Shown: positions 4,869 through 46,881, counted from the stretch's first letter. The stretch: DNA of 64,000 bases from an uncultured Solirubrobacterales bacterium (GCA_963712325.1 CAVQHG010000005.1:23804-87803); one strand, 5' to 3'. Translations and numbers: made by a program. Notes: a model not told the origin generated them from the sequence alone.

Positions 4869-4894
4869 CTCGTCGCGGTTATGCCGTGGGTTTT

Positions 4895-5846: not shown

Positions 5847-5872
5847 AGAGGGGCCGCCCAAATCGCCCCTCT
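5847..5872 (-). terminator. GC hairpin downstream of paralog B
   Basis: AGAGGGGC-N10-GCCCCTCT, 19 nt past the stop at 5891. Confidence 0.45.
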
Positions 5873-5890
5873 CACGCCGGCTGTGTCGAT

Positions 5891-8463: not shown

Positions 8464-8490
8464 GAGAGGGCCGCTCCGGACCCCCCTCTC
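8464..8490 (-). terminator. rho-independent-type terminator of paralog C
   Basis: GAGAGGG-N13-CCCTCTC, 22 nt past the stop at 8512. On the minus strand it is followed by CTCTTTCTC. Confidence 0.5.
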
Positions 8491-8511
8491 AACCTGGATT
8501 TGTGTCGATGC

Positions 8512-9261: not shown

Positions 9262-9548
9262 TTCTCCCCCTTTTGATCCGTTGCTTTCGGCCCAAGGGGC
9301 CTCAAGAGCCGAGACTTCACGGACGGTATCCCCGGCCTGGGGGTTGGTCAAGCGAGCAGAAGGGCGAGGTCGATCAATCGCGGGCGAGCCACCCTGCGCG
9401 CCACGGTCCGCCACCTTGCGGGAACTCCGCAGTCGACGCGCGGGCATTTCTCGGATGGAATGTTCAGGAATGCGCCATAGATTCGTGACGAAGACGCTTG
9501 CATCAGTTGGCCCGGGTGCAAGGCAAAGCACGCGACGAGGAGGCGAAA

Positions 9549-9860
9549 ATGCCCACCACAGCCAAAGAGTCCAAAGTTGCATCCGGTCGCGACGCGGTTG
9601 AGAAAACCACTGAGCTGTCCGAGCAGGTGCTCGCACAGATTGAGGGGAGCCAGAAAAAAGCGATCGAGGCAGTGCGCAAGTTCATGGAGTCCGTCGATGA
9701 GGCGCTGCCACCACACGGCGAGAACCCGTCCAGGCGGCAGGAGGTAATCGACTCTGCGCTCGAGATGTCGGAGAGACTCGTTAAGACGCAGTACGACTTC
9801 CTGACCAGCGTCGTGCACAGCGCCGGTGAGGCACTGGGAGCGTCGGGCAAGAAGGAGTAG
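9549..9860 (+). CDS. small helical (phasin-like / coiled-coil) protein
   Basis: GAGGAGG lies 6 nt before ATG 9549. 103 aa, Glu/Lys/Ala-rich helical sequence (ELSEQVLAQIEGSQKKAIEAVRKFMESVDEAL). Confidence 0.5.
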   Translation: MPTTAKESKVASGRDAVEKTTELSEQVLAQIEGSQKKAIEAVRKFMESVDEALPPHGENPSRRQEVIDSALEMSERLVKTQYDFLTSVVHSAGEALGASGKKE

Positions 9861-9869
9861 GCCACGGCC

Positions 9870-10301
9870 GTGAGCCGACTCGGCCTCCCCTCGTTCGATC
9901 GTCTCTGGACGCTGCCTGCGGGTGTGCACAAGGCAGTGGGGCTGATCCCTGAGATCGCCAGGAACACGGCCTTACTGCGCGATGTCGTGCGCGCGCTGGA
10001 GCAGGTCGCCGGGGACACCGATACCCTGGTCGGAATCCGCGAGGACATGGCGCGCGTTGCAGAGGCGACGAGTGTTCTGGGGGCAATGGACGGCAGGATG
10101 GCGGCCATCGAGGAGGCCATGCCGGTGCTGGTTGAGGTCCAGCGCCATCTCGCCCAGCTACCGGAGACCATGGGGCAGCTCCTTACGACGCTCGACGAGC
10201 TCAACCAGAGCGTTGACACGCTTCAGGGGGCGGTGGAGCCGATGGGTCGCCTCGCCAATCGAGTGCCCGGCGGGAAGAAGAGCGCGCCGACGGGCACGTA
10301 G
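9870..10301 (+). CDS. coiled-coil hypothetical protein
   Basis: GTG start 10 nt after the upstream stop. 143 aa with heptad-like Leu/Val spacing (LLRDVVRALEQVAGDTDTLVGIREDMARVAEATSVL...LTTLDELNQSVDTLQGAV). Confidence 0.45.
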   Translation: MSRLGLPSFDRLWTLPAGVHKAVGLIPEIARNTALLRDVVRALEQVAGDTDTLVGIREDMARVAEATSVLGAMDGRMAAIEEAMPVLVEVQRHLAQLPETMGQLLTTLDELNQSVDTLQGAVEPMGRLANRVPGGKKSAPTGT

Positions 10302-10748
10302 CTCACGATCACACAACCGCCCGGCCCGGAATGGCCTTCCCGGCGATAGGGCGGATTGGTTACGGAGGCTCGAAAGGGCGCATTCTCATGCGGATTCAAG
10401 ACTCGCCCTGCCTACGCTTGGCCTCCGATATATCGACAGCCCGCGGGCCGCTGCCTCCGAAAGCATCTCGATGCGCTCGCGAGCAAAAGGTGTCCAAAGC
10501 CGCTCTCAACGCCGCTCCAGAGGCGCGCCAACGCGCGCACTGGGAGGCCCGCGGCCTGTTTCAAGGACCGCCACGCTGTCCGCACATAGATATCGGGCAT
10601 ATACACGAGCGTAGGTCAACCGTCGGGTGCAAACAGGGGCGCCGAGCTTGTTGTTTGCACCAGCGAACCTCCATCCCCAATCGCACAGTCCGAGCGCGGT
10701 GTGGGGGCGGAATCGAGGGGCCCTTCGTCGCGCCGCTGGCGGAGTCGC

Positions 10749-11804
10749 CTAGCTGCGTCGCGGCCGCGGGCCGACCTTGACGCTCACCCTGCCGCCCTGA
10801 CGCAGAACCGTTCGCGGCCTCGGGTGCTGCTTCTTGACCACCGCCTTCTTCGAGCGTCGGCCGCGGACCTTGCCGAGGCGGCAGCCGGCGCGCTTCAGCG
10901 CCCTTCGCGCCGCCCTCAGCCGCTTCAGCCTCAGCTTGGGGACGACGCACTTCTTGGACGACGTGGAATCAGGCGACGTGTAGGTGAAGCGATCGGCCTC
11001 GCTTGGCGCGCTCGTGCCGCCTGCCGTCGTCACCGCCACGTCGACGGCGCCCGCAGCGGCGGCTGGCGGCGAGACGGCCGTGATCTGGGAGGACGAGTCG
11101 ACGCTGAAGCTCGCTGCTGGTGTCGTCCCGAAGCTGACCGCGTTGGCTTCGTCGAGGTCACTGCCGGTGATGACGACGTGGGTGCCGCCTGCGGTCGAGC
11201 CGCCGGCCGGGGAGAGCGAGGCGAGCTGCGGTCGCGGCCGGACGTCGGCGTTGAAGAGGATCTCCAGGTTGCCGGTGGTGGCGCTCGGCGGTGCGCTGGC
11301 GAGTTCGGCCAGCGCCGGCGCCCATAACGAGAAGGCGGAGCCGGGCGCGGTGGCGGTCGCCAGATGGCGCGCATATTGGTAGTCGACGCCGATCAGATCG
11401 CCCGCCTCGATCGCGAGACTGGCCGGGAAGGTGGCGGTCGTTTCCCCGGTCGCGTTGACCGGGAGCGTGGAACCGGCCCCGGTGTACTGCCCGGTGCCTG
11501 TGGGCCGCAGCACGCGCAGGACGAAGTCGCCACCGTAGTTGCCGGCGATGCGCCAGCGGACGATCCTGCCGGAGACCGGCGAGGTCACGTGGGCGCCGGG
11601 CTCGGTGAGCACGGTGTTGGCGTACATGCAGTCCGGTTTCGCCCCGCAGGTGATAGTGCTGAAGTAGGGCGCGGTGAGCGGGCTGCCGACCGTCACCGTC
11701 GCGGCGCTGGCGCCAGCCGCTCCGAGGACCCACACAGCGCAGGCGGCCACCGCGACTCTGACGGTCCGCTTCAAGGCCCTCAATCCCCAAGCCTCGGGGC
11801 GCAT
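10749..11804 (-). CDS. secreted protein with IPT/TIG domain and basic PASTA-like C-terminal tail
   Basis: Signal peptide (VAVAACAVWVLGAAGASA). IPT/TIG-like LSPAGGSTAGGTHVVITGSDLDEANAVSFGTTPAASFSVDSSSQITAVSPP. Tail CVVPKLRLKRLRAARRALKRAGCRLGKV. Confidence 0.6.
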   Translation of the reverse strand: MRPEAWGLRALKRTVRVAVAACAVWVLGAAGASAATVTVGSPLTAPYFSTITCGAKPDCMYANTVLTEPGAHVTSPVSGRIVRWRIAGNYGGDFVLRVLRPTGTGQYTGAGSTLPVNATGETTATFPASLAIEAGDLIGVDYQYARHLATATAPGSAFSLWAPALAELASAPPSATTGNLEILFNADVRPRPQLASLSPAGGSTAGGTHVVITGSDLDEANAVSFGTTPAASFSVDSSSQITAVSPPAAAAGAVDVAVTTAGGTSAPSEADRFTYTSPDSTSSKKCVVPKLRLKRLRAARRALKRAGCRLGKVRGRRSKKAVVKKQHPRPRTVLRQGGRVSVKVGPRPRRS

Positions 11805-11991: not shown

Positions 11992-12065
11992 TGGGGCGGG
12001 CTGGACTCGAACCAGCGACCGACGGATTATGAGTCCGCTGCTCTGACCGACTGAGCTACCGCCCC
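11992..12065 (-). tRNA. tRNA with CAT anticodon (elongator Met, or Ile2 if lysidine-modified)
   Basis: The reverse complement GGGGCGGTAGCTCAGTCGGTCAGAGCAGCGGACTCATAATCCGTCGGTCGCTGGTTCGAGTCCAGCCCGCCCCA folds as a cloverleaf. G1:C72 is paired, so it is not an initiator. CCA is not encoded. Confidence 0.85.
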
Positions 12066-16040: not shown

Positions 16041-16114
16041 CTCCGGGGGTGGGACTCGAACCCACAACCTCTCGATTAACAGTCGAGCGCTGCTACCTAT
16101 TGAGCTACCCCGGA
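16041..16114 (-). tRNA. tRNA-Asn (GTT)
   Basis: The reverse complement TCCGGGGTAGCTCAATAGGTAGCAGCGCTCGACTGTTAATCGAGAGGTTGTGGGTTCGAGTCCCACCCCCGGAG has the anticodon loop CTGTTAA and a GGTTCGAGTCC T-arm. Confidence 0.9.
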
Positions 16115-21656: not shown

Positions 21657-22625
<969 letters not shown>

Positions 22626-22650
22626 GCCGGGGAGTTCTCCCCGCCGGCGC

Positions 22651-23742
22651 TCAGACCTTGCCGCGCAAGACCGCGCCCGCCAGCGCCGCGCCGGCGGCGA
22701 GCGGTGCGGCGAAGAAGAGCGGGTCCTCGGCAAGCGCGCGGCCCATTGTGCGCGCCGGCAGGCCGCTCTCCAGGTAGCCGTCGAGGTCGACGGGCCCGGT
22801 CAATAGCCGGTGGCGGCCTCCCGCGACCTCCCGCAGCGCCCGCTCCGCCTCGGCGCCCGCCGGCCAGCGCTCCGGGCGCTCGGGCAGCGCGACCTCGAGC
22901 GGCGCCAGCGCCAGGCCCAGAGCGGTGAGGGTGTGATGGCTGGCGCCGCGGTGCCGCTCGCGCGGGTCCGAGGAGGAGAGCCGCGGCGAGAGCATCGTCG
23001 GCAGGCCGAGCGCCAGGGCGCTGTGGGCGCTCTCGAGCGCGACCGCTCCCCCGTGCCCGAGGCGGGTCGCCGAGCCGATGATCCCGGGCCCCGGCCCGGC
23101 CAGCACAGCCTCCCAGCCAAGGCCGTGGGCGGCGTCCAGGGCGCCCGCGGTGGTGACCGCCTCGTGCTCGCCGCCGTAGGCGCCGCCTGCGGTGAGATGA
23201 GACTCGAGCAGGCCGCGCTCGCGAAGCTCGGCGACGTCCCTCGAGAGCGCTCCCGGCAGCGCCCCCCCGGCGGTCTGCACGTAGCCGAGGCGGATCCCGG
23301 GCGCTGTCTGCACCGCGCTCCAGACCGCCGGCGCCAGGTGCCCGTGCAGGGGCAGCACGAGGACGGGCGGGCCCGCTTCCCGCGACTCCCCCGGCCTGGC
23401 TCCCTCCTCACCCGTCAGGCCATCGATGGGCCGGGCCGGCGAGATCTTCTCGACCGGATCGACCGGATGCTGGAGGGAGGTGTAGTTGAGCTTGATCACG
23501 TGCTCGCCGTCCACCCGGCCCGCCGCCAGGCCGCGGGTCAGGTTGACGTGGACGACGTCGAAGCCCCCCGAGCCGAGGCCCAGCTCGACCGCGCAGACGT
23601 TGACGACCACCTCGTCGCCCTCGCGCATCTCCCCCAGCAGCGCGGTGTCGGCCCAGGCGTCCCGCAGCTCGCCGTCGACCTCGACCGCCAACGGCTCCTC
23701 GCGCGCGACGACCCCCCTGCGCAGCTGAAGGCGGCCGCTCAC
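22651..23742 (-). CDS. DUF3866-family protein
   Basis: The GTG at 23742 overlaps the M20 stop (GTGA). Conserved-looking VVNVCAVELGLGSGGFDVVHVNLTRGL...IKLNYTSLQ...LPLHGHLAP. The family name is recalled from memory. Confidence 0.55.
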   Translation of the reverse strand: MSGRLQLRRGVVAREEPLAVEVDGELRDAWADTALLGEMREGDEVVVNVCAVELGLGSGGFDVVHVNLTRGLAAGRVDGEHVIKLNYTSLQHPVDPVEKISPARPIDGLTGEEGARPGESREAGPPVLVLPLHGHLAPAVWSAVQTAPGIRLGYVQTAGGALPGALSRDVAELRERGLLESHLTAGGAYGGEHEAVTTAGALDAAHGLGWEAVLAGPGPGIIGSATRLGHGGAVALESAHSALALGLPTMLSPRLSSSDPRERHRGASHHTLTALGLALAPLEVALPERPERWPAGAEAERALREVAGGRHRLLTGPVDLDGYLESGLPARTMGRALAEDPLFFAAPLAAGAALAGAVLRGKV

Positions 23743-31436: not shown

Positions 31437-32948
31437 CTAACCGCGGGCGGCGGGCCCGTCGGTCGCCTGCACGAAGTCGCGGGCGCGGACCAGGACGAAG
31501 CCGAGGATCGCACCGATCAGGCAGACGACCGCCGCAATCAGCACGATCTCGTTGAAGGCGCTGACGAAGGCCTCCGTCGCGGCGTTCCCATAGGCGGCCT
31601 CGTGCCCGGCGGGGCGAATCTTCGGCTGCCTTGGTCCCCCCCGAGGCGACCATCTCCCCCAGGCCGTGCCTGGCGCCAGGCAGGATCTCGGCGATGCGGG
31701 AGTCGATCCGCGACTGGAAGACCGCCCCCAGCACGGCGACGCCGGTCGCGATCCCGACCTGCCGGAAGGTGGTGTTGATCCCCGAGCCCATCCCCGAGCG
31801 CTCGACGGGGACGACGCCGATCGCCGCCTGTCCGATGCCGGGGTTTGCCGTCCCGATCCCCACTCCGGCGACGAGGAACCCGGCGAGCAGGGCGGTCCAG
31901 CCCGAGTCGGGCGAGACCCCGTGGATCGAGCAGCAACCCGAGCCCGACCAGGCCGAGGCCGACCCCGAGCAGCACCCGGATCGGGATCCGGTGGGAGAGC
32001 GAGCCGGCGATCGGCGCGACGACGAAGGAGAGCACCGTCATCGGCAGGAAGCGGAGGCCCGCCTGCAGCGGCTCGTAGCCGAGCACGCCCTGGATGTAGA
32101 GCGTCAGGTAGAGGAACATCGCGAACATCCCCGCCGAGAGGCAGAAGGCGACGGCCGAGACGCCGTTGAAGGCCGGTTTGCGGAACAGCCGGAAGTCGAG
32201 CATCGGGTGGGGGCTGCGCATCTCCACCGCGACGAAGGCGAGCAGCATCGCCGCCGACCCGGCCAGCGAGCCGACGATCAGGGCGCTGCCCCAGCCCTCC
32301 GGGTTGCCGCGGATCAGGCCGAAGATGAGCAGGAAGAGCCCCAGCGAGAAGGTGATCAGACCCGGCAGGTCGACGCGCTCCGCGTATTCGGCGGCGACAT
32401 TGGCGAGCCTCAGCTCGGTGAGCGCGATCGCCGCCAGCCCGATCGGGACGTTGACGAAGAAGATCCACTCCCAGCCGAGGTGCTCGGTGATCACGCCGCC
32501 GACCAGGGGCCCGATCGCGACCGCCCCGCCCATCGGTCGCCCCCCAGACGCCGAACGCCGTCGCCCGGTCGCGACCGTGGAACTCCTGGCCGATCAGCGC
32601 CAGGGAGGTTGCGAACATCGCCGCTCCGCCCACCCCCTGCAGGCCACGGGCGAGGTTGAGCAGGGTCGGCTCGCCGGCCAGCCCGCAGAGGAAGGAGGCG
32701 GCTGTGAAGATCCCGAACCCGATCGAGAAGACGCGGCGCCGGCCGAGGCGGTCTCCGAGCGACCCGGCGGTGAGCAGGAACGCGGCCAGGGTGAGGGTGT
32801 AGGCGTCGACGACCCACTGCAGGCTGGAGAGGCTGGCGTCGAGTTGGCGCTGGATGTCGGGCAGGGCGACGTTGACGACGGTGATGTCGAGCAGCAGCAT
32901 GAACGTCGCCACCGAGATCAGGATCAGGGTCCACCACTTGCGCTGCAT
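31437..32948 (-). pseudogene. MFS transporter (DHA2/EmrB-like, 14-TM type), about 3 frameshifts as sequenced
   Basis: The N-terminus MQRKWWTLILISVATFMLLLDITVVNVALPDIQ...LGDRLGRRRVF is classic DHA2. Reading continues in other frames at about 32535, 31928 and 31620 (pieces in ORFs 31538..32533, 31360..31863 and the tail of 31437..33851). Confidence 0.7.
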
Positions 32949-33001
32949 GGCGCGCAAGCCTATTGAGGGGCGCCGGGCGCGCGCCCGGAACCGCCTGGCG
33001 C

Positions 33002-33851
33002 TCAGACGGCGAGGTGGCCGAACTTCTCGCGGATCCGCTGATAGAAGCTCGTCCCCGGCAGCTGGGCGAGCAGGCTGACGGCGTCGGTGAAGCGGACCTC
33101 GACCTGCCCGGCCGGGGCGAGCTCGCCGAGCCGCTCTCCGTCGACGGCGATCTCGACCGGCTCGCGGCCGGCCGCGTTGCCGATATGCAGCACGTCGGAG
33201 GGCGCGACGACCAGCGCCCGCGCGGTCAGCGAGTGCGGGGAGATGTAGCTGACCACGTAGCCCTTGACGCCCCAGGCGAGGATCGGGCCGTGGTTTGCGA
33301 GGTTGTAACCGGTCGAGCCGACCGGGGTCGAGGCGACCAGGCCGTCGCAGCGCACGTGCCCGACCTCCTCGCCGGCGATCTTGTAGCTGAGCTCCGCGAC
33401 CCGATCCTGCGGGCCTGCGCGTGAAGCTGACGTCGTTGAGGCCGGTCCGGGTCGTGCCCTCGACCTCGACCTCGAGTCCCGGCAGGTCGATCGCCTCGGT
33501 CTCCGACGCGAAGGCGCGGCGCAGGCCCTCGGCGGCGTCGTCGCGGTCGACCGCGGCGAGGAAGCCGACGGTGCCGAAGTTGACGCCGAAGACCGGCACG
33601 CCGGTGCGCGGCGAAGTGCCGCAGGCCGTGCAGGATCGAGCCGTCCCCGCCGAGCACGACGCAGAGGTCGATCCCGTCGTGGCCGGCCGGTGGCCTCCTC
33701 CAGCGCGGCCCCCACCTCGCCGTGCTTGGCGACGCTCGCCGGCGGTGGCGACGATCCGCCAGCCGGCCTCGGCGGCGACGGCGACCGCCTGCTCGACAGC
33801 CTCGGTCGGCGAGGGAGGGTGGGAATGGCTGATCAGCGCCGCGGTCCTCAT
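33002..33851 (-). pseudogene. nadK: NAD kinase, at least 4 frameshifts as sequenced
   Basis: The pieces are spread over three frames. They are [14 protein letters not shown]..., GIDLCVVLGGDGSILHG, GVPVFGVNFGTVGFLA and GHVRCDGLVASTPVGSTGYNLANHGPIL... Confidence 0.75.
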
Positions 33852-33918
33852 AACAGTCGCGCCTTCGCTCGCTGCGCAACAGAGTCAAGTTTCGATTGCT
33901 GGCTCGCTCGGCGCTCCC

Positions 33919-34701
33919 TCATACATCGACCTCTTCGATTGCTTCGGCGAGGTCTGCGATTCCGGTACCCGCCCGGGCGCAGCGAACAAAGGTCTCCCGG
34001 TTGCCCTTCGGCCCCGGCAGGCCGGAGGGCGCGAAGCCGAGCACGGCGAGGCCGACCTCCCGAGCCGCCCGGGCAACGCCGAGGACGGCCTCGCGCCGGT
34101 CCTCCGGATCCCCCACGACCCCCCTGCCGACGCGGGCGCGGCCGAGCTCGAACTGCGGCTTGACCATCGCCAGCAGCTCGCCGTCCGCGGTCAGGCAGCC
34201 GGCGACCGCGGGCAGCACCTTGGCCAGGGAGATGAAGGAGACGTCGAGGACCGCGAGCTGGGCGGCGAAGGGCAGATCCGCGCGCCGCAGCCGCCGCGCG
34301 TTGAGGCGCTCGACCACGGCCACGCGGGGGTCCTCGCGCAGCGATTGGGTCGATCTGCCCATAGGCGACGTCGACTGCCGCGACCCGGGCGGCGCCACGC
34401 TGCAGCAGGCAGTCGGTGAAGCCTCCGGTCGAGGCGCCTACGTCCAGGCAGTCGCGGCCGGCGACGTCGAGGCCGAGAGCATCGAGAGCGTTGTCGAGCT
34501 TGATCCCGCCGCGGGAGACGAAGCGGGGGCCCGAATCGACCAGCAGGGCGGCATCCGGCTCGACCAGCTGGCTCGGGCGCAGGGCGACGGGCCGTCCTCG
34601 CCGAGCCTCACCTCGCCCGCCCGGACCGCACCCGCCGCGGCGGAGCGCGAGGGGAACATCCCCCGCTCGGCGAGAACCGCGTCTATGCGCGCCTTGCTCA
34701 C
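33919..34701 (-). pseudogene. tlyA: TlyA-family rRNA 2'-O-methyltransferase, 2 frameshifts as sequenced
   Basis: S4 domain [33 protein letters not shown], then [44 protein letters not shown], then [18 protein letters not shown]...MVKPQFE. The three pieces are in three frames (breaks at about 34590 and 34350). Confidence 0.75.
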
Positions 34702-34779
34702 GGGGGAACGGTACTGCGCGCCGCCGAGGAGCCGGATCTTTAGCCGATTTCCAGCGGTTCTTTATCCCATGCTTAATAT

Positions 34780-34808
34780 TTAGTAGAATGCTTTTCGCGA
34801 TCTCGCAA
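34780..34808 (-). promoter_or_regulatory. candidate sigma-70-type promoter upstream of tlyA
   Basis: The minus strand reads TTGCGA-17 nt-TACTAA in an unusually AT-rich stretch about 75-105 nt upstream of the tlyA ATG. Confidence 0.25.
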
Positions 34809-34841
34809 TCACCGCTTGGGATGCGGGCTCTGTGATCCGAA

Positions 34842-35036
34842 TCACACACGAAGCGCACATATGTTCGTATCCTGGTTCAAGGATTCGACGAGGAGGCCGA
34901 TAGGTACTCGACATAAGACTTCTCGGTTGGATTCCGCGCCGTCGATATAGCTGGCATCGATTCCCACGATGTCCGCACCGAGCGGCACCAAGGAATCCGG
35001 CCCACCTCCCATCGATCCACATATACAGAGATACAT
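34842..35036 (-). CDS. 64-codon ORF, possibly an amputated N-terminus of a Rossmann/SAM-methyltransferase-like gene
   Basis: ATG 35036 directly follows GGGAGGAGAGAT from the repeat element. The peptide [37 protein letters not shown] resembles MTase motifs I and II. The stretch is much AT-richer than the window average. Confidence 0.35.
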
Positions 35037-35120
35037 ATCTCTCCTCCCTGTAGTAACCCCAGAAGCGCCCCGTCGAAAGGCGGGGCGTCTTCTGTTGGGG
35101 GGCCGCTCTGGCAAGCCAAA
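35037..35120. repeat. box+hairpin element, copy 1 (84 nt, 83/84 identical to copy 2)
   Basis: ATCTCTCCTCCCTGTAGTAACCCCAG followed by the hairpin CAGAAGCGCCCCG-tcgaaagg-CGGGGCGTCTTCTG, then GGGGGGCCGCTCTGGCAAGCCAAA. Confidence 0.9.
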
Positions 35121-35251
35121 GATCGACCAATCCCCCATTCCCGCAGGGATGTCGCTGTTTGCCAACCCGCGGCGATCGGCGACGGTCGACATTCGTTCGC
35201 AACTGGATGCCCTTGTCGCCGAATACGACCGGTTTTTTGGATTTGGGTTCC

Positions 35252-36406
35252 TTAGGTGCGGGTGCCCGACTGCCTCGGCGCACCGCTGGGCCCCGGCGCG
35301 ACGCCGTCTTCTTCTAGGACCCCCTTCAGCGCCTCCCCCCAGAGCTCGGGGGCGTTCGCCTCGAGGAAGGCCGACACGTTTTCGAAGTGGCGCACGGCCT
35401 CCTGCCCACGATCCTCGAGCTTGATTCGCCAGCGGATCGACGTGCCGCCGCCTTCGAGGGGGACGAACTCCATCGTCTCGAGCGAGCGGGGCATCATCGG
35501 CGGTCCGTTGGGAAGCGGCGTGAAGCGGCTGGTGAAGTAGCGGAAGGGGCGCCAGTCGAGATACTCGCGCAGAGCGTCGCCGGCCTCGCCGTGCGCGCAG
35601 TGACTTGCCGCGCCCACTCCCATCCGCCCGCCGTCGTTGGGCTGGTTCTCCGACTGCGGTCTGGAAAGGCTGCCAGCGCAGGCGCTTGTCGGCGTCGACC
35701 CAGTACTGCCAGATGGCAGCCGCGGGAAAGGGCAACTCCATCTCGACCTCGAAATCGGCGTCGCCCGGACCGATGTACGCACGGCGGGCCTCGCGCATCC
35801 GCTCCAGGGCGGGCTTCAGGTCGTAGACGCCCCCGGCGACCTCGCCGAAGGCGTCGTAGGTCTCGCGTGTGCCGGGGCAGCTCGAAGGACGACGGCAGCC
35901 GCCGTTGGCAGGCCTCGGTGAAGAAGGCATACGCCTCCGGCCCGCCGTCTTCGCCGATGCTGTTCTTCAAGAGCCGGTGAACGAGGATGACGTCGGGGCC
36001 GGCAAGGTCCTCGCGGCCGTCTCTCGCTTTCGATCATGAAGCTCCCATAGTGCGTTAGGAACTTCAGGTCGAGAGAAGGGATCGCTGCGCACGCGTCACA
36101 ACGACAGGTGGTTCCGCGCTCCATGTCCTGAAGCCGGTTGGCGAAATCGAAGTAGCACGCCTCGACCAACTCAATCAACCGCTCACCGTGTTCAAAGGTC
36201 TCGTCCTCCGCGTAGCAAAAGACGGCATCGCCCTCCAGCTTCACGAACCGCATCGGAGGCGCGAGCCGTTCGCGGATCAGCTTGGTCAGCTCGCCGATGA
36301 TGGCGTGGGCATGCTCGAGCTCGGTGCCGGTGAGGAACGCCGTGTATCCCGAGATGTCGGCCAAGAGCAGGTAGCCCTGCCGGGGCGATTGATCGGGGCT
36401 GGTCAT
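35252..36406 (-). pseudogene. DUF2652-like protein (nucleotidyl-cyclase-fold N-terminal domain plus SRPBCC-like C-terminal domain), about 3 frameshifts as sequenced
   Basis: N-terminus GYLLLADISGYTAFLTGTELEHAHAIIGELTKLI...FVKLEGDAVFCY...TTCRCDACAAIPSLDLKFLTHYGSF. It continues in other frames as LVHRLLKNSIGEDGG..., YDAFGEVAGGVYDL...IWQYWVD, and ...REYLDWRPFRYFTSRF. One break falls at a G4 run (35874-35877). Confidence 0.55.
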
Positions 36407-36613
36407 TCCGGGCGCCCCGGGCTAGGTGTATGCCGATCCGTGGGGGGGCCAAGGTTTCGCTTCAACGATAGCCCGGCATCCATGGGAGCGGTGCTACCCG
36501 TGCCACAGTCGTGCCACAGTCGTCGCCTGAAACAACCGGATTCAGCCGGAACCAGCCGAATGGTATTTGGCTTGAACATGCGGTTTTCCGCCTTCCCAGG
36601 CGGATGGCGGTCG

Positions 36614-36697
36614 ATCTCTCCTCCCTGTAGTAACCCCAGAAGCGCCCCGTCGAAAGGCGGGGCGTCTTCTGTTGTGGGGCCGCTCTGGCAAGCCAAA
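36614..36697. repeat. box+hairpin element, copy 2
   Basis: Same 84 nt as 35037-35120 with a single G/T difference. It lies 208 nt upstream (minus-strand sense) of the DUF2652-like start. Confidence 0.9.
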
Positions 36698-36900
36698 TTC
36701 GGCGAGGCCCACAAGGCGAGGGCGAGAGCCTATCCGGCCGCGGATCAGGCTCGTGCCACAGTCCGTGCCACGGTCATGCAGCGCCAGGGCACGGATCGGC
36801 TCCCCGAGCAATCCTTCGGGCAGCGGCCGGCGGCCAGCTTCGAGGATGAACGCGCGAGAGCCGGCCCGCGGCTCAGGTGGGCCGGCTCTCCTGAGGGGGC

Positions 36901-37176
36901 TCAGTCGCGCTGCAGGAAATGCGCCTCGAGGGACTCGAGGTCGACGCCGCTGCGCTCCATGGCGCTTTTCAGATCCTCGTTGGACAGGAAGGCACGGGCG
37001 GCCTCCGGTGACTCGAAATCGTGGGTGACGGCGACGACCCCGTCGCCATTGCCGGGCCGGAGCACCTGGGCGTCGGTGACGCCACCCTGCCGGCGAAGCT
37101 CATCGACCGAGTCGTAGGCCTCGCGCCAGGAGTCGTAGTCGTCGACGCGATGCAGAATCAGAGCGGTGGTGGCCAT
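36901..37176 (-). CDS. small alpha+beta protein (Dabb/stress-responsive-barrel-like), function unknown
   Basis: 91-aa clean ORF, MATTALILHRVDDYDSWREAYDSVDELRRQGGV...VTHDFESPEAARAF. It is divergent from a MarR gene. Confidence 0.45.
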   Translation of the reverse strand: MATTALILHRVDDYDSWREAYDSVDELRRQGGVTDAQVLRPGNGDGVVAVTHDFESPEAARAFLSNEDLKSAMERSGVDLESLEAHFLQRD

Positions 37177-37216
37177 TTGCGTCCTCCTTGGTGGGGTGAG
37201 TGTGCTCTTGCTAGGG

Positions 37217-37238
37217 TATTTGCTTCCGACAGCAAATA
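37217..37238. promoter_or_regulatory. perfect 8-6-8 palindrome, candidate MarR operator
   Basis: TATTTGCT-tccgac-AGCAAATA in the AT-rich divergent spacer between 37176 (minus-strand gene start) and the MarR gene. Confidence 0.45.
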
Positions 37239-37338
37239 ACTATTACCAGGTGAAAGTAACTTCGTCAAACGAAATCGCCCCGAGCCGGCCGAGCCGGATC
37301 CCTTCGACGAGCGGGAGTTCCGCGCCTGGCGGGGCTTC

Positions 37339-37786
37339 ATGCGTGTCCACCGCACCGTGACGGACGAGCTGGCGCGGCGACTCGAGCGGGCCCACGACTC
37401 TGCCGCTAATCCAGTACGGGGTCCTGATCACGCTTGTCACTGCCCCAGGTCGCCGGTTGCGGATGACCGACCTCGCCGAGCGGGTGCTGATCAGCCCGAG
37501 CGGGATGACGCGGGCGGTCACTCGGCTGCAGGCGCAGGGCTTCGTCGAGCGCGAGCGGGACCCGGACGACCTGCGCAGCCTCATCGTCTCGATGACGCCC
37601 GCCGGTCTCCGCAGGCTGCGGGAGGCGCAGGTCACCCATCATGCCTGCGTTCGCGAGTTGCTCTTCGGCGGCCTCGAGGGCGACGACCTCGAGCGTCTGG
37701 CGGCCATCTTCGACCACGCCTTGCCGGGCGTGCTCGACGCTCCTGTCTGGCCAGCACCGACCGAGCAGCCTCCTCAGCCGGCCTGA
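37339..37786 (+). pseudogene. MarR-family transcriptional regulator, one frameshift near 37396 as sequenced; true start probably upstream
   Basis: FRAWRGFMRVHRTVTDELARRLERAHD | LIQYGVLITLVTAPGRRLRMTDLAERVLISPSGMTRAVTRLQAQGFVERERDPDDLRS. The wHTH core is in ORF 37457..37786 and the N-terminal part is in the frame of ORF 37339. Confidence 0.7.
37728..37770 (+). repeat. 43-nt repeat, copy 1 (3' end of MarR gene)
   Basis: GCGTGCTCGACGCTCCTGTCTGGCCAGCACCGACCGAGCAGCC. 39/43 identical to 38124-38166. Confidence 0.8.
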
Positions 37787-37810
37787 CGGACGCCGCCCGC
37801 TCCCCGGCCG

Positions 37811-38035
37811 CTACTGCCCCTCGGGATCGCCGAGATGTTCAATGAAGATGTCTGAGCCTGGAAAGACCTCGGACTCATGCCCGTCGCTCCAACGCACCAA
37901 GTAGGGCGGTGCTCCATCCTCGCCGAGCACTTTGAGGATCTCACCGTCACGCTGCGGCTCCCCCGTGTGGTGTCCCTTGACGACCAGCCGATCGCCCGGA
38001 CTTGCTTCGAATATTGAATCGTCAGCTGATGCCAT
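37811..38035 (-). CDS. DUF1918-family small protein
   Basis: 74 aa from ATG 38035. GDRLVVKGHHTGEPQRDGEILKVLGEDGAPPYLVRWSDGHESEVFPGSD matches my memory of DUF1918. Confidence 0.65.
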   Translation of the reverse strand: MASADDSIFEASPGDRLVVKGHHTGEPQRDGEILKVLGEDGAPPYLVRWSDGHESEVFPGSDIFIEHLGDPEGQ

Positions 38036-38123
38036 CGCGTTCCTTTCGGTCCGTGGAACCCGATTGTCGCGGCCGGACCGCGAAAGGCGCATCCGGGATA
38101 AGCCCCATTGCCGTGGCTACCGA

Positions 38124-38166
38124 GCGTGCTCGACGCCCCTGTCTGGCCGGCACCAACCGAGGAGCC
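38124..38166 (+). repeat. 43-nt repeat, copy 2 (non-coding duplicate of the MarR 3' end)
   Basis: GCGTGCTCGACGCCCCTGTCTGGCCGGCACCAACCGAGGAGCC. Confidence 0.8.
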
Positions 38167-38235
38167 CGGCAGCGGTGACGTCTCCAGGTTCTCCTCGATG
38201 CCCCAACCCGGCGACCGCCATCCTGAAGGCACCTG

Positions 38236-38490
38236 ATGGTGCCAATGCCTCGACAGCTCATAAGTGGCCTGACAGGAGCGGCCCAGACTCTTTCTATCCT
38301 TGTTCGGCGAGGTGGGTGGTCCCTTTCGATCGGGGCGCTGGCCGTCGCAACAGCGCCGATTGTCGGAGCCAACCCGTCGCCCCCAACTGAAGGGGGCAAC
38401 GGCGCCGGTAAGTCCGGGCAGTGCACCGGCAAGAACTCGGAACGCCCGGCTTCCTGCAAGAGCCAGGGCGGTCCAGGCAACCAGCCGTAG
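38236..38490 (+). CDS. small secreted Gly-rich peptide precursor with a Cys pair
   Basis: Hydrophobic stretch SLSIGALAVATAPIVGANP, then PSPPTEGGNGAGKSGQCTGKNSERPASCKSQGGPGNQP. A strong terminator follows 8 nt after the stop. The start codon is uncertain. Confidence 0.4.
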   Translation: MVPMPRQLISGLTGAAQTLSILVRRGGWSLSIGALAVATAPIVGANPSPPTEGGNGAGKSGQCTGKNSERPASCKSQGGPGNQP

Positions 38491-38497
38491 GAGCCCG

Positions 38498-38545
38498 GCG
38501 CCGGGCGGCCTCTGCGAATCCCAGGTGGCCGCCCGGCGCTTTCAA
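38498..38545 (+). terminator. rho-independent terminator
   Basis: Perfect 13-bp stem GCGCCGGGCGGCC / GGCCGCCCGGCGC with a 16-nt loop, followed by TTTCAA. Confidence 0.65.
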
Positions 38546-38559
38546 CCATCTCTCGCGGG

Positions 38560-39044
38560 AGTTGCCAGTGGTGGCTCGACCGCGTGGCCGAATCACTGTG
38601 GTCCATCGCCTCGATGACCACTGCGGCTGGAAGCCGACGTTCCCCCTTGCTCTCGGAGGGCTGCACGTTCAGCCTCCGCAAGCTGGCGGCCAATGCTGAT
38701 TCCAATGCCTCGCCGGGTTCGCGCGGTCCCAACACGGTCGCCACAACTCGAATCCCATCTGGCGCGTGCTCGGCCTCTGGCACTCCGAGAAGATCCAGCA
38801 TTCCACCTCGGACGCCTTCGACGCTGCCCATCTCCGATCGAGAGAACCCCACCCTCTTATTGCCTTTCCTGGGCTCGATCGCGTCGTGAAAATCGCTCGT
38901 CGTTCCCGGTCCAGTGCCCACGATCATGCAGGCCGAGGAACGGCCACGCAAATCCGCAGCTCCCACGTATGACAAGTAGTTCAATCCGGTGACGCGGCGT
39001 GTGGCCTGCTCAGTCGGCGCCGCTGCGACGTCCCCTGCCGACAA
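38560..39044 (-). CDS. hypothetical protein (only the N-terminal part of ORF 38022..39044 looks coding)
   Basis: Moderate-GC stretch with coding-like composition (MIVGTGPGTTSDFHDAIEP...GIRVVATVLGPREPGEALESALAASLRRL). There is no recognisable family. The ORF runs on through the terminator and the DUF1918 promoter, so the 3' end is unclear. Confidence 0.2.
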
Positions 39045-39315
39045 GGGCCTGGAGCACGCGGCCGAGCCGGTGCCGCGGGCCGGTCGGGGATCGCGGCTGG
39101 GCGGCCAGCCACTCCTCGCGGGTCGGGAGCCTCCCCGCCCTCCTCTCGGCCAGCACGCATTCGGTGTGGGCGTGCCGGCGCCGGCCCATGTCTCCCTCGG
39201 GGGCGACGAGGACGTGCTCGCTGAGGGCCGGTAGGTACTCGCCGCAGAACGGGCAGCGGTAGGTGGCCGGCTTCCTGTTCTGCGCCCTGCGCATCGACCA
39301 CCAGCGGACGGTCAT
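39010..39315 (-). CDS. conserved small zinc-ribbon protein
   Basis: 101 aa, basic N-terminus then YRCPFCGEYLP...RRRHAHTECV (a CxxC...HxxC arrangement). I recall similar small actinobacterial proteins. Confidence 0.5.
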   Translation of the reverse strand: MTVRWWSMRRAQNRKPATYRCPFCGEYLPALSEHVLVAPEGDMGRRRHAHTECVLAERRAGRLPTREEWLAAQPRSPTGPRHRLGRVLQALVGRGRRSGAD

Positions 39316-39689
39316 CGCCCGATGATGCCGGTTCGGCGCTAGACTGCGTCGCCGATGGCAACCTCCCGCGGACAGATCGTCGCCTCGCAGCTGTCCGTCG
39401 TGGAGAAAATCGGCGCCGAGCTCGTCAGCTCGGTCGTCGCCTGAGCGCCAAGCAACGCCCGCCGGCCAAGACGAGGAGAGGGGACGCGGCGGAGGCGTTG
39501 GAGGCCGTCCCGAACCCCTCGAGGCAGTGGCAGGAAGTGCTGCGAACCGTCGCCGGCAACGGCTTCGGCCCCAACGGCGGTCGAGGCGTCCGGAGCTCGA
39601 GGTCCCCCGACCCGGACGGCGAGCGCCGCCCCTGGATGTCTGGATGATGGATTCCTGACTCCCCCATGCCCGAATCAGGAATCAATCTT

Positions 39690-40427
39690 CTAGTGCCCCG
39701 GGCCCAGCTCGCAGCCGTGTGACTTGCCGCGGCCGGGGCCGCCGTCGCAGTAGTCGCGGCCCGGCCCTCCGTAGAGCTGGTCGGCGCCCGGGCCGCCGAA
39801 GAGGCGGTCGTTGCCGGGACCCCCGTGGCAGCCGTCTTCGCCGGCGCCCATGAAGCATTCGTCGTTGCCGGGGCCGCCGAAGCAGCCGTCGCTGCCACCG
39901 CGGTGCCGGCAGTAGTCGTCGCCCGGGCCCCCGACGCAGTCGGTGTTCTTCCGCCCGGTGATGCAGATGTCGTCGCCTCCCCCGCCTATGCAGCGGTTGC
40001 GTTTCGTCCCTTCCGGATAGCAGGTGTCCGGCTCGCCGTTGCCGATCAGCATGTCCGAGCCGGCACCGAGGCGGACGGTGAGCGGCATCGGCAGGCGATC
40101 GGCGACCTCGACCTTGTCGTCCTCGGGGCCCATCACGATTTCGATCCCGCCCGCGTGGGCGACGGGGCACGTCGTCCGCCCCCTCGCCCTCCTGCAACTC
40201 GAGGGGGCGGCCCCGATGCGGCCGCTCACCTCGACCACGCGACCACGAGCCAGGAGGGTCAGGTGCGAGGAGCTGAGCGGGCCGTGGACGACGATCATCC
40301 TCTCGGGGACGGCTTCGGCCGGCTCGAGCATCGCCAGCGCCGCCACGCACAGCACCAGCAGCGGGATCGCCCGGCGCGCGCCGCCCCGCGCCATCGCCAC
40401 CGCCCGGATGCCGGACTCCGCGCCCAT
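39690..40427 (-). CDS. secreted Cys-rich protein with RTX-like GGxGxD repeats
   Basis: Signal peptide (ARRAIPLLVLCVAALAMLEPAEA; alternative ATG at 40394). The C-terminal 110 aa are GGGGDDICI/GGPGDDYCR/GGSDGCF/GGPGNDECF/GAGEDGCH/GGPGNDRLF/GGPGADQLY/GGPGRDYCD. Confidence 0.6.
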   Translation of the reverse strand: MGAESGIRAVAMARGGARRAIPLLVLCVAALAMLEPAEAVPERMIVVHGPLSSSHLTLLARGRVVEVSGRIGAAPSSCRRARGRTTCPVAHAGGIEIVMGPEDDKVEVADRLPMPLTVRLGAGSDMLIGNGEPDTCYPEGTKRNRCIGGGGDDICITGRKNTDCVGGPGDDYCRHRGGSDGCFGGPGNDECFMGAGEDGCHGGPGNDRLFGGPGADQLYGGPGRDYCDGGPGRGKSHGCELGPGH

Positions 40428-40552
40428 ACCGGCAACGTCTAACAGACGGGGGCGAGGGAAGTCGTGCCGGAGGCCGTGTTTCACCCGTCGGGTTGTGGGT
40501 AACTCACGGGTGAGACACGTCGGCCACACCCCCCATAGCGGCCGGCGTCCAG

Positions 40553-40611
40553 CTCTCTCCCTGTAGTGACCCAGGCCGGTGCCTCGTCCTCCCCGACGGG
40601 GCACCGGTCTG
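40553..40611. repeat. box+hairpin element, copy 4 (divergent hairpin)
   Basis: CTCTCTCCCTGTAGTGACCCAG followed by the hairpin CCGGTGCC-N16-GGCACCGG. It lies in the divergent spacer between the RTX-like gene and the epimerase gene. Confidence 0.7.
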
Positions 40612-40662
40612 CATGGAGACACCCGAGGATTGAGATCCGGCCGAGCGGGGTAGGGTCGCGGC

Positions 40663-41595
40663 GTGATGGGGGGAACGGGAACCGGTTCCGGGGAGAAGAG
40701 CAGCTTCCCCCCCACGCGGGCTGCGGTGACGGGAGCGAGCGGCTACCTCGGAGGGCTGGTCGCGACGCGGCTGGTTGCGGGCGGCTGGGACGTCGTCGGC
40801 CTCGGCCGGCGCCCGGTGAGCCAGCCCGGCGTCACCCATGCCGACTACCGGCTCGGCGACCGGCCGGGGCTCGCTTCCCTGACCGGCGTAGATGTCCTGA
40901 TCCACTGCGCCTGGGACTTCGGCCAGCGGAGCTGGAAGGCCGTCGAGTCGATCAACGTGCAGGGGACCCGGCTCCTGTTCGAGGCGGCGACGGAGGCGGG
41001 CGTGCCCAGAATCGTCCACGTCTCGACGGTGAGCGCCTCGGGCGTGCCGCGGTCGATGTACGGCCGGGCGAAGCTGTTCACGGAGGCGGCCGCGCTGGAG
41101 ATGGGCGGAAGCGTGGTCCGGCCCGGGCTGCTCTATGGCGCATCGCCGGGGGGGATGGTCGGAATGCTGACGGCGCTGGTGCGCGCCCTGCCGATCGTGC
41201 CGATCCTCGTCGGCGCCGACCGCCCGCTCTTCCTCGCCCACGAGGAAGACGTGACCGAGCTGATCGCGATGGTCGCCGACGGCTCCGAGTGGAGCCCCGG
41301 CGCCCCGCTCGTCGCGGCTTCCCGCGACCCGCACAGCCTGCGTGAGGTGCTCGGCGCCATCGCCGAGGCCCAGGACCGGCGGCGCACCTACGTCAGGGTC
41401 CCCTGGCAGGCCGCCTACGGTCCGCTGCGGGCGGCGGAGCTGCTGCGGGTCCCCCTGCCGATGCGCTCCGACAGCGCCCTCAGCATCGCGACCCTCGACC
41501 CCGACCCCTTCGCCTGGGGGTACGCGCCCCGCAGCGCCTCGTTCAGGCCCTTCGAACCGTCCGCCCTGCGGGCGGGGGGTGCCGAGGGCCTTTGA
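40663..41595 (+). CDS. NAD-dependent epimerase/dehydratase family protein
   Basis: Rossmann motif VTGASGYLGGLVATRLVAGGWDVVGLGR. 310 aa. GTG 40663 or ATG 40666. Confidence 0.7.
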   Translation: MMGGTGTGSGEKSSFPPTRAAVTGASGYLGGLVATRLVAGGWDVVGLGRRPVSQPGVTHADYRLGDRPGLASLTGVDVLIHCAWDFGQRSWKAVESINVQGTRLLFEAATEAGVPRIVHVSTVSASGVPRSMYGRAKLFTEAAALEMGGSVVRPGLLYGASPGGMVGMLTALVRALPIVPILVGADRPLFLAHEEDVTELIAMVADGSEWSPGAPLVAASRDPHSLREVLGAIAEAQDRRRTYVRVPWQAAYGPLRAAELLRVPLPMRSDSALSIATLDPDPFAWGYAPRSASFRPFEPSALRAGGAEGL

Positions 41596-43178
41596 ACGTC
41601 GTCGTCGGCTCCGGGCCGACCGGAGTCGCCTGCGCCCTCGAGCTGGCCGACCGAGGCGAGGACGTGACGATCCTCGACGTCGGACGCGGGCCCGACGAGG
41701 AGAAGGCGCGCCGGTACGCGCCGCTCGCCGACCTCCCTCCCTCCGACTGGGACCCGCAGCTGATCGAGGACCTGCGGGCGGAGTTCTCGGTGAGCCGGGA
41801 CCAGCTGCCGCTGAAACCGGTGCTCGGCTCGCTGCACCCGTACGCGACGACCGATCCCAGCGCCCCCCGTCCCGGCAGTGGCATCGGCGCCACGCCCTCG
41901 AACGCGCGCGGGGGGCTGAGCACCGCCTGGGGCGCGGCGATCCTCCCCTATCGGGAGTCCGACATTGCCGACTGGCCGCTCGGCCTCGAAGACCTCGTCC
42001 CCTTCTACCGCTCGGTTCTCCGCTTCATGCCCATCGCCGCGCGGCGCGACCGGCTCGAGGCCGAGTTCCCGCTCTACGTCGACGGGCGACCCGCCGACGT
42101 CGAGCCGACCCCCCAGATCGATGCCTTCCTCGGCGACCTCGACCGCGGCGCGGAGCGCCTGCGCGACGAGGGAGTTCTGGCGGGGCGGGCGCGGATCGCG
42201 GTGCGCACCGAGGACGACGGCGGCGGCCGCGGCTGCCGCCGCACCGGCCTCTGCCTGCACGGCTGCCCGCTCGGCGCGGTGTGGTCGGCGGAGCAGATGC
42301 TCGGCGCCCTCGCCGCCCGCCCCAACGTCAGCTATGTCCCGGACCGCCGCGTTGAGCGCTTCGAGGAGGGCCCCGACTCGGTGCGAGTCACCGCCCGGAC
42401 CGCGGTCGGCGACGAGGAGGAGGTGCGCGCGGCGCGGCTCTTCGTCGCCGCCGGAGCACTGCCGACGACGCGCCTGGTGCTCCGCTCGCTGGACGCGGCG
42501 GGCGAGCGGGTGGAGCTCGCCGACTCCCAGTACTACACGTTCCCGCTGCTGCGCAGCCGCGGGGCCGACGTCGGCGTCGACCGCCTCGGCAACACCCTCG
42601 CGCAGGCCTTCCTGGAGGTGAACGACGAGAGCGACCCGCGACGCTCCGCCCATGTCCAGGTCTACGGGTACAGCGCCCTGATGCTGAGGGAGGTCGCCTC
42701 CACCGTGCACCTGCCTCCCGGCCTGGTCGAGAGGGTGGGCCGCCCGCTGCTCTCCCGCCTGCTCTTCTGCCAGGGCTACCTGCACTCGGACCGCTCGCGG
42801 CGGATCGGCGCGGAGCTCGACGGCGGAGAGCCGTCGGGGCCGCTGCGGCTCTGGCCGCTCGGATCGGCCGAGCTGACCGCGGAGGCCGTCGGCGCGGTGC
42901 TCGCCCGGATCGGGCGGGTCGCGGGAGCGCTGCGCGCGCGGCCGCTTCGGCCGCTGCTGCGGATATGGGAGCCGGGGCGCGGGATCCACGTCGGGGGCGG
43001 CTTCCCGATGCGGGAGAGCCCCTCGGGGCTGGAGACCGACCTCCTCGGCCGGCCGGCCGGCCTGCGCCGCGTCCACCTCGTCGACTCCAGCGTCTTCCCG
43101 ACGGTGCCGCCGACGACGATCACCCTGACGGCGATGGCGAACGCGCAACGGATCGCCGCGGGCCGTGACCTCGGCTAG
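41592..43178 (+). CDS. FAD-dependent GMC-family oxidoreductase
   Basis: The TTG start overlaps the upstream stop. VVVGSGPTGVACALELADRGEDVTILDVG dinucleotide fold. GMC C-terminal signature VHLVDSSVFPTVPPTTITLTAMANAQRIA. Confidence 0.7.
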   Translation: MNVVVGSGPTGVACALELADRGEDVTILDVGRGPDEEKARRYAPLADLPPSDWDPQLIEDLRAEFSVSRDQLPLKPVLGSLHPYATTDPSAPRPGSGIGATPSNARGGLSTAWGAAILPYRESDIADWPLGLEDLVPFYRSVLRFMPIAARRDRLEAEFPLYVDGRPADVEPTPQIDAFLGDLDRGAERLRDEGVLAGRARIAVRTEDDGGGRGCRRTGLCLHGCPLGAVWSAEQMLGALAARPNVSYVPDRRVERFEEGPDSVRVTARTAVGDEEEVRAARLFVAAGALPTTRLVLRSLDAAGERVELADSQYYTFPLLRSRGADVGVDRLGNTLAQAFLEVNDESDPRRSAHVQVYGYSALMLREVASTVHLPPGLVERVGRPLLSRLLFCQGYLHSDRSRRIGAELDGGEPSGPLRLWPLGSAELTAEAVGAVLARIGRVAGALRARPLRPLLRIWEPGRGIHVGGGFPMRESPSGLETDLLGRPAGLRRVHLVDSSVFPTVPPTTITLTAMANAQRIAAGRDLG

Positions 43179-43238
43179 CCCGACGGCGAATCCGGGCAGC
43201 GGCCCGCCCCACTGCCGGGACCGCTGACCAGAGATACA

Positions 43239-43316
43239 CGTCTCTTCTCCCTGTAGTAACCCCAGCGATGCCCGGCTCGCAGGGAGCCGGGCCTCCTGCT
43301 CGTCACTGAAGAGACG
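43239..43316. repeat. box+hairpin element, copy 3, enclosed by a 9-bp outer stem
   Basis: TCTCTTCTCCCTGTAGTAACCCCAG plus the hairpin GCCCGGCTC-gcagg-GAGCCGGGC. CGTCTCTTC (43239-43247) pairs with GAAGAGACG (43308-43316). It lies between the convergent GMC oxidoreductase and dxs genes. Confidence 0.7.
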
Positions 43317-43352
43317 GCGGAAAGCTACATGATTGAGCGCATTGGTTCAAGC

Positions 43353-46881
<3,529 letters not shown>

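Follow-up and report, generated by a model that had tools for sequence, protein, structure and literature searches.

In phage lambda, with its recombinase Int, and in mycobacteriophage L5, the core of the phage attachment site (attP) is flanked by arm-type integrase binding sites. In the ICESt family of Streptococcus, integrative and conjugative elements (ICEs), integrative and mobilisable elements (IMEs) and cis-mobilisable elements (CIMEs) accrete at one attachment (att) site. A related survey has been published (PMC4701971), and the genes for tRNA and transfer-messenger RNA (tmRNA) are targets of tyrosine-integrase genomic islands and prophages, which is termed the Islander paradigm (PMC4383910). 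The present analysis concerns a stretch of 64,000 nt from an uncultured Solirubrobacterales bacterium (GCA_963712325.1, CAVQHG010000005.1:23804-87803), referred to as the window and numbered from its first nucleotide, and within it a conserved box of ~25 nt that occurs four times between the genes tlyA and dxs. Probably, Solirubrobacterales have a hot spot of site-specific integration between tlyA and dxs, with its att core at a conserved small RNA; the system is of a known kind, and its target RNA is new.

The initial annotation described four co-oriented copies of the box, each followed by a GC hairpin, as one element with unrelated stems. The four copies hold up: the 15-mer TCCCTGTAGTRACCC is found in the 64 kb at 35045, 36622, 40558 and 43248, all on the plus strand and with 0 mismatches, against a chance expectation of 0.08, and the 19-mer CTCCCTGTAGTAACCCCAG with up to 3 mismatches is confined to the same four sites (expectation 0.00). 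A GC-rich hairpin stands directly after each copy, and the plus-strand folding z-scores of copies 1 to 4 against shuffled sequence are -4.9, -2.8, -2.7 and -3.3. The stems are indeed unrelated in copies 3 and 4. Copies 1 and 2, however, have an 84-bp block in common (35037-35120 and 36614-36697) with one mismatch and with the same stem, which reduces the stem types to three. Copies 3 and 4 have only the ~25-nt box in common, and an upstream stretch, CAGAGATACAyrTCTCT, is common to copies 1 and 4. Instead of one element, two kinds can be distinguished, namely att-core repeats (copies 1 and 2) and paralogous minus-strand small-RNA genes (copies 3 and 4), the latter having lineage-specific inserted hairpins that account for stems unrelated to those of copies 1 and 2.

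A scan of 185,579 species genomes with CTCCCTGTAGTRACCCMRG provided at least 120 loci, nearly all in metagenome-assembled genomes (MAGs) of Solirubrobacterales/Thermoleophilia, and the related genomes were compared as 8-kb pieces around the locus. Many of the listed loci have two or three co-oriented copies inside 8 kb. Among the matches listed, the box region is single in 16 of 16 complete chromosomes, as one block or two adjacent blocks, and the box is therefore a single-locus feature rather than a dispersed repeat. Sorting by flanks divides 164 sites into classes A (95), D (48), B (17, including copy 4 of the window) and C (4). Class A, represented by copy 1, has a long, highly conserved stretch on the tlyA side of the box. 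In class D, represented by copy 2, the likeness to A begins only at TCTCTCC. Classes B and C possess a different hairpin or none, and a conserved block on the dxs side, GCTTGCAyCAAAGCGCTCAATCGGTTAGCCTGCC. The order is invariant: recN, the MFS gene, nadK and tlyA, all reading leftward, are followed by A, n copies of D, B or C, and dxs, which also reads leftward. The genes between A, D and B/C are unrelated or variable and lie in both orientations. We also note that L009 (Frankiales MAG) and L053 (Chloroflexota MAG) have a full A-type locus despite their other-taxon labels, which suggests mis-binning or mislabelling, and that L032 (Paeniglutamicibacter) has the box match alone without flanks, which looks like chance.

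Within a genome, the identity between A and D sites has its edges at a median of 7 nt before the box start and 56 nt beyond that start. This ~63-bp block comprises TCTCTCC, the box, the hairpin and TTTTCTGTTG, with sharp edges that many species have in common. Of 24 within-genome A/D pairs, 14 match perfectly over it, lineage-specific hairpin variants included, and in the window the block is extended to 84 bp. In the related loci (at least 120), such ~63-bp direct repeats bound variable islands, always between tlyA and dxs and always co-oriented. Recombination probably takes place at this core; the A/D polymorphisms did not locate the presumed crossover point.

The flanks of the core carry a second set of repeats. 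The 10-mer RTGCSMCAGT has 142 matches in 975 kb, almost all of which are tandem pairs; these stand either on the right of A or D, at +100 to +150, or on the left of D, at about -125, where the pair is followed by three CCGGYTG repeats. The same class of 10-mer (TGCGCCAGT or TGCCACAGT) is present at both ends of all six islands with readable ends (6/6), as in the layout of attP, in which an arm, the core and an arm follow one another. Like attP of lambda and L5, the core has short direct repeats on both sides at about 100-130 bp, with putative sites of the same class on both arms, and an excisionase-like helix-turn-helix gene adjoins the integrase gene (an HTH_17 open reading frame (ORF) of excisionase type in one locus). 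This is in contrast to the 7-bp overlap and core sites of lambda and L5, since the core identity is ~63 bp here; the arm motifs form tandem pairs, and their period is 11-12.

Both att-core repeats of the window conform to this plan. Copy 1 (35037-35120, plus strand) is an attL-like junction of class A, in which the core ATCTCTCC with the box at 35045-35059, the hairpin and CTTCTGTTG is followed by a degenerate start of a P' arm, GGCCGCTCTGGCAAGCCAAA; this layout is kept in 95 related sites, always adjoining tlyA. Copy 2 (36614-36697, plus strand; box at 36622-36636, hairpin at 36642-36665) is an att core of class D between two tandem islands in the order P-core-P'. On its left, the P-arm-like right end of island 1 (36500-36613, plus strand) has a tandem 10-mer pair, ACTGTGGCAC twice on the minus strand at 36500-36520, three CCGGYTG repeats at about 36530-36561 and ATTTGGCTTG, an arm layout that recurs left of 39 D-type matches in related loci. 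On its right, the P'-arm-like left end of island 2 (36698-36775, plus strand) has GTGCCACAGT at 36753-36762 and the degenerate GTGCCACGGT at 36765-36774. Copy 2 is the P-core-P' junction of two relic islands.

Mobility genes are found inside the islands of related loci. PF00589 tyrosine integrases adjoin A in L111 (5848-7041), L029, L038, L010 and L117, and tblastn identified a full or fragmentary island integrase in 20 of 121 loci, namely these five, L049 and L060, with fragments in 13 more. Between the island integrase and known phage integrases, identity does not exceed 30%. The presence of a TrwC-relaxase/AAA_30 protein beside the island integrase of L117 (5467-7998) makes at least one occupant of the site look conjugative or mobilisable. 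The sole IMG/VR match, L121 (IMGVR_UViG_3300013105_000558), contains at 1-11492 a prophage with portal, prohead protease and DnaB-type helicase, the end of which (11250-11460) is a D-type site with the same core and an arm 10-mer of its own, GTTCGCCAGT twice; one core thus seems to serve several integrase specificities. In five cases, homology links the right flank of A in one species with that of a D in another (L026/L022, L102/L046, L102/L055, L015/L046 and L089/L090), from which it follows that new elements enter at A and that the older junction becomes D. As in Islander-type islands (PMC4383910), a tyrosine integrase is encoded by the element, a conserved RNA locus is the site-specific target, co-oriented repeats of an identity block are located at the ends, tandem arrays are formed, and the integrase decays over time.

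These features bear on two other origins of the repeats. Plain local duplication of an intergenic terminator and its flank by unequal crossing-over would fit the near-identity of copies 1 and 2, the terminator-like hairpins on the plus strand and the identity of A and D within genomes. It is very unlikely in view of the sharp block edges, which are the same across many species, the arm motifs matched at both island ends, the unrelated cargo between the repeats, and the integrases, prophage and relaxase inside the units; the A-to-D flank homology between species supports insertion. The initial annotation had also likened GTAG/TAAC and the palindrome to a repetitive extragenic palindrome with its associated transposase (REP/RAYT) or an IS200/IS605 end; such an element would be mobilised as single-stranded DNA by a Y1 HUH transposase. 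The copies do have a flank with a conserved tetranucleotide next to a palindrome and are strictly co-oriented, and the wobble asymmetry of the hairpin discussed below would fit a DNA fold of one strand. Nevertheless, there is one region per genome in each of the 16 complete chromosomes among the matches listed, the repeats bound gene-carrying islands with arm-type repeats and with tyrosine integrases rather than Y1 enzymes, a gap of 9 nt separates GTAG from the stem, and no Y1 transposase is present among the ORF families examined for the 121 loci or in the window block. A REP or IS200 origin is thus largely refuted and would be most surprising. A reading as a miniature inverted-repeat transposable element was rejected along with it, as the element occupies only one locus in each complete chromosome among the matches and the ORFs of the 121 loci include no Y1 gene.

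The box is also part of an RNA. On the minus strand, a structured RNA upstream of tlyA, here called RNA A (34828-35064), starts with the box CUGGGGUUACUACAGGGAGGAGAGAU and ends about 125 nt before the GTG start codon of tlyA at 34701. RNA A is ~270 nt long, begins at copy 1 and covaries. The 340 nt between copy 1 and tlyA have 52-65% GC as compared with 71% for the genome, blocks of the region are conserved in 86 loci, and about 95 nt of the RNA are nearly invariant across more than 80 species. In a set of 82 sequences less than 90% identical, the consensus fold of the region has -148 kcal/mol on the minus strand versus -134 kcal/mol on the plus strand. For the minus structure, 93.4% of cells are paired, 22 pairs are changed on both sides versus 13.9 +/- 1.7 in shuffles (0/500), and the covariation score of 0.133 exceeds both that of shuffles (0.076; 0/500) and that of slid controls (0.02-0.04). 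Most compensatory changes fall in one long hairpin (for example AU41/GC32, UA42/CG31 and GC37/AU30), helices with such changes occupy alignment columns 157-239, and the G.U pairs of the helices, which would be A.C on the other strand, favour the minus strand. The box itself pairs with the downstream UGUGGAUCC in a helix that is invariant, and the absence of variation neither supports nor contradicts this helix. The membership of the box in minus-strand structured RNAs, which the initial annotation had proposed, is thereby borne out. So is its remark that no known Rfam family was recognised: Rfam has no match over the element at the gathering score in the whole window, nor at E<=5 in 34500-43800, and ARAGORN finds neither tRNA nor tmRNA in 33500-44000. 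The box is apparently the start of an undescribed structured small-RNA family across Solirubrobacterales. Unlike the targets of Islander-type islands (PMC4383910), a ~270-nt structured RNA that is neither tRNA nor tmRNA is occupied here.

The GC hairpin of the A and D copies covaries as well (GC57/UA15 and CG67/GC12 in 82 species), and the earlier proposal of selection on a fold is supported by these compensatory changes (GC/UA, CG/GC), through which the pairing is kept. One-sided changes in the hairpin give wobble only in the plus reading, with 30 A.C versus 3 G.U in the minus reading. Copies 1 and 2 possess a GC stem of 9-10 bp, a short loop and a U-rich tail on the plus strand, and are terminator-like by scan; the hairpin of copy 1 (35065-35088, plus strand), with its tail CTTCTGTTGG, was flagged by the terminator scan. 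The assignment of the hairpin to the minus-strand RNA was considered and is contradicted by the wobble counts. Since both the wobble and the U-rich tail fit the plus strand, the hairpin is probably not part of that RNA. It could be a plus-strand terminator carried at the end of the element, or it could be an inverted-repeat core site of the integrase. Copies 1 and 2 resemble intrinsic terminators in their GC stem, short loop, U-rich plus-strand tail and covarying stem, and differ from them in that no plus-strand gene ends at copy 1 and that the hairpin is situated inside the recombination identity block. In copies 3 and 4, the hairpins lack a U-tract and are not of the intrinsic terminator type.

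Co-oriented hairpins with a strand-specific wobble pattern, which separate small gene units without integrases and whose structure is kept while their sequence varies between genomes, also recall an integron-like cassette array. In such an array, attC-like hairpins would be recombined as folded single strands, and expression would start from a promoter next to dxs; a promoter-like block does stand at that end and reads into the array. However, the hairpins are identical within a genome, unlike attC sites, and no conserved R''/R' pairing (RYYYAAC/GTTRRRY) is found. The long arms with direct 10-mer repeats are typical of attP, and the cargo genes lie in both orientations. There is no IntI beside the array, and the island integrases, which are phage-type and located inside the islands, score far below integron cut-offs. 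An integron-like origin is accordingly hard to credit.

The remaining two copies belong to the B type, which was studied in a B/C alignment of 21 loci. RNA B of the window (copy 4, 43185-43316, minus strand) has its own hairpin at 43270-43292, the box at 43248-43266 and a 3' domain. B starts directly after the dxs stop codon, next to a block TTGCAy-N17-TAGCCT that is conserved in the 21 loci and is represented in the window by TTGAAC (43345-43350), 18 nt and TAGCTT (43321-43326) on the minus strand (43321-43350). The block resembles a promoter with an actinobacterial-style TAnnnT and may well function as one; an E. coli-type scan made no call for RNA B. In B/C, a 7-bp helix, P1, encloses the box and occurs in the variants GCCUCCU/AGGAGGC, GCCUUCU/AGAAGGC, GUCUCUU/AAGAGAC and GUCUC/GAGAC, with 126 Watson-Crick, 8 G.U and 2 A.C pairs and at least four compensatory variants; the G.U pairs are all in the minus reading. 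The halves of P1 in copy 4 are CGUCUCUUC (5' half, 43308-43316) and GAAGAGACG (3' half, 43239-43247). Copy 3 (40553-40619, minus strand) is a degenerate B-like 5' domain with its own hairpin at 40574-40609 and a box variant GGGUCACUACAGGGAG, in which a short helix, UCUCC/GGAGA, encloses the hairpin and the box variant. The promoter block of this copy, CTCAATCC, is degenerate too, and copy 3 has neither a P arm nor a P' arm. Copies 3 and 4 are not att repeats but B-type RNA genes, of which copy 3 is degenerate. RNAs A and B are presumably expressed and functional. As a separate observation, a perfect 21-nt tandem repeat, GAUCAGUCCUCCUCGAACGCC, of at least four copies lies about 300-400 nt downstream (minus orientation) of the C-type RNA of L026.

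The initial annotation had read the minus strand as a 5' leader or riboswitch-like element, in which the hairpin, a strong Shine-Dalgarno and a start codon would control downstream minus-strand genes. In agreement with this, the box is indeed part of structured RNAs on the minus strand, copy 1 lies ahead of tlyA, copy 3 is about 150 nt upstream of the RTX-like gene, and a box variant in L110 (oriented position 3546) has GGGAGGA 6 nt before the AUG of an apparent protein gene. Some diverged box copies, such as that of L110, may have been co-opted as ribosome-binding sites. The ORF led by the AUG is, however, not conserved: its frame is disrupted in many species by a 2-nt indel (TATATA[TG]TGTGGATCC), and only 12 codons, without a conserved stop, remain in the consensus. 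In the B type, the purine run taken for a Shine-Dalgarno is the 3' half of helix P1. The sequence GUG UAU CUC UGG, ascribed to copy 3, actually follows copy 4 (43239 downward), and the RTX-like gene, ascribed to copy 4, is downstream of copy 3, the two copies having been swapped. Copy 4 is located between convergent genes, the GMC-like gene (plus strand, end at 43178) and dxs (minus strand, end at 43353), and is therefore not the leader of a nearby minus-strand gene. In different species, RNA B is followed by unrelated or opposite-strand genes. From copy 2 to the DUF2652 gene there are 208 nt, and these, like the stretch downstream of D in general, form a repeat-bearing, attP-like arm with putative binding-site motifs. 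With hairpin wobble pairs that fit the other strand and no Rfam match, a leader is improbable.

If the tlyA-dxs interval is an integration hot spot, the following course of events can be proposed. The bacterial attachment site (attB) would be the ~63 bp made up of the invariant box, itself the first segment of RNA A to form a helix, and the GC hairpin next to it. The same core would be present in attP of temperate phages, and of integrative or mobilisable islands, that encode a tyrosine integrase, and would be flanked there by arms of tandem 10-mer and CCGGYTG repeats. Each integration beside RNA A would duplicate the core and push the older junction towards dxs, and the resulting co-oriented array would consist of A (attL), the D copies (attR/attL junctions) and RNA B. 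In the window, copy 1 would be A and copy 2 a D junction between two decayed, integrase-less islands; copies 3 and 4 would have their own promoter-like block, with P1 closing the loop that holds the box and with an inserted hairpin specific to the lineage.

Several observations weigh against such integration. No island integrase, fragments included, is present in the tlyA-dxs block of the window, as judged by Pfam searches of 10 ORFs and by tblastn with the integrase of the islands as query, and the window islands are for this reason at best relics. The P-core-P' region of copy 2 has no blastn match in 50,697 records of cultured phages. Neither an excised attP nor an empty attB was observed, and the loci include no empty/occupied pair of the same species. 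An E. coli-type scan found no promoter for RNA A. In classical Islander-type islands (PMC4383910), the block is the 3' end of the target gene, which the island regenerates. Here, to judge from the minus-strand reading of the RNA body, the identity block covers the 5' end of the RNA and its upstream hairpin. The wobble and the U-tract of the hairpin point to the plus strand, which gives a core that mixes features of both strands, the wobble evidence coming from few independent substitutions. Finally, the hairpins of A and D are identical within a genome and different between genomes, which requires lineage-bound elements or gene conversion.

A different emphasis on the same data places the RNA first. 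The box would be the core of an undescribed RNA family whose paralogs are of three types, with A located upstream of tlyA and both B and C downstream of dxs; elements that integrate into the 5' end of RNA A would swap its promoter and 5' helix for their own hairpin and arm, and would thereby rewire RNA A and the tlyA-nadK-recN operon. We consider this unlikely. As a weaker addition, the box GGGGUUACUACAGGGAG may bear a loose resemblance to the segment of 16S helix 44 (h44) around C1409 that is methylated by TlyA, or to 23S helix 69 (H69), and RNA A could then regulate tlyA as a mimic of the TlyA substrate.

Genes of the window were placed by frame analysis based on GC at third codon positions (GC3) and by Pfam. 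The left boundary of the block is tlyA (33919-34701, minus strand), which encodes an rRNA methyltransferase with FtsJ and S4 domains, starts at GTG 34701 and is frameshifted. The cargo of island 1 (35121-36499) is a minus-strand DUF2652-like gene that a frameshift divides into 35816-36406 and 35252-35782. Island 2, or older accessory DNA (36776-40552), contains a MarR-family gene (plus strand, 37361-37786) and the gene of an RTX-repeat secreted protein (minus strand, about 39690-40400). An epimerase gene (40663-41595) and the GMC-like oxidoreductase gene (41592-43178), both on the plus strand, lead to the right boundary, dxs (43353-45290, minus strand; stop codon at 43353-43355). Among the recurrent island cargo of the related loci are a PIN-domain toxin (f16), a family of membrane proteins (f8) and, immediately following RNA B, a glutaredoxin-like protein (f11), and the same cargo unit adjoins A in one species and D in another. 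Like the accretion of ICESt elements and CIMEs, the locus has tandem att-flanked units at one site, many without recombination genes, with newer units beside older remnants. It differs from the ICESt family in phylum, target and integrase clade.

Split genes are observed at tlyA (33919-34701), at the DUF2652 gene (35252-36406) and in the region 31437-33851. There is a 1-nt gap in tlyA near 34591 relative to the consensus of 86 loci, and the nadK/MFS region (31437-33851) reads as a single fused ORF. Either indel errors in a long-read assembly or true pseudogenes would account for the frameshifts. The only tyrosine recombinase of the window is XerD (21657-22799, minus strand; TIGR02225, 343 bits), which is 13 kb from the block and is a housekeeping enzyme rather than an island integrase. 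Elsewhere in the window, a c-di-GMP-II-GAG riboswitch aptamer is present at 7814-7898 on the minus strand (RF03169, 52 bits versus a gathering score of 40), and two tRNA genes called by Rfam, at 11992-12065 and 16041-16114 on the minus strand, are both far from the integration locus.

For motif searches, the locus offers a caution, as the combination of a conserved box and divergent hairpins is here a mix of att repeats and paralogous RNA genes. We know of no phages of Solirubrobacterales. The integration hot spot would supply a precise attB of ~63 bp and attP arm motifs for a soil order of Actinomycetota with almost no genetic tools, and its integrase/att pair could be converted to an integration vector. 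The locus also points to a strongly conserved, covarying structured RNA family that is absent from Rfam, and the accessory block between tlyA and dxs would be explained as a stack of integrated elements, most of which have decayed.

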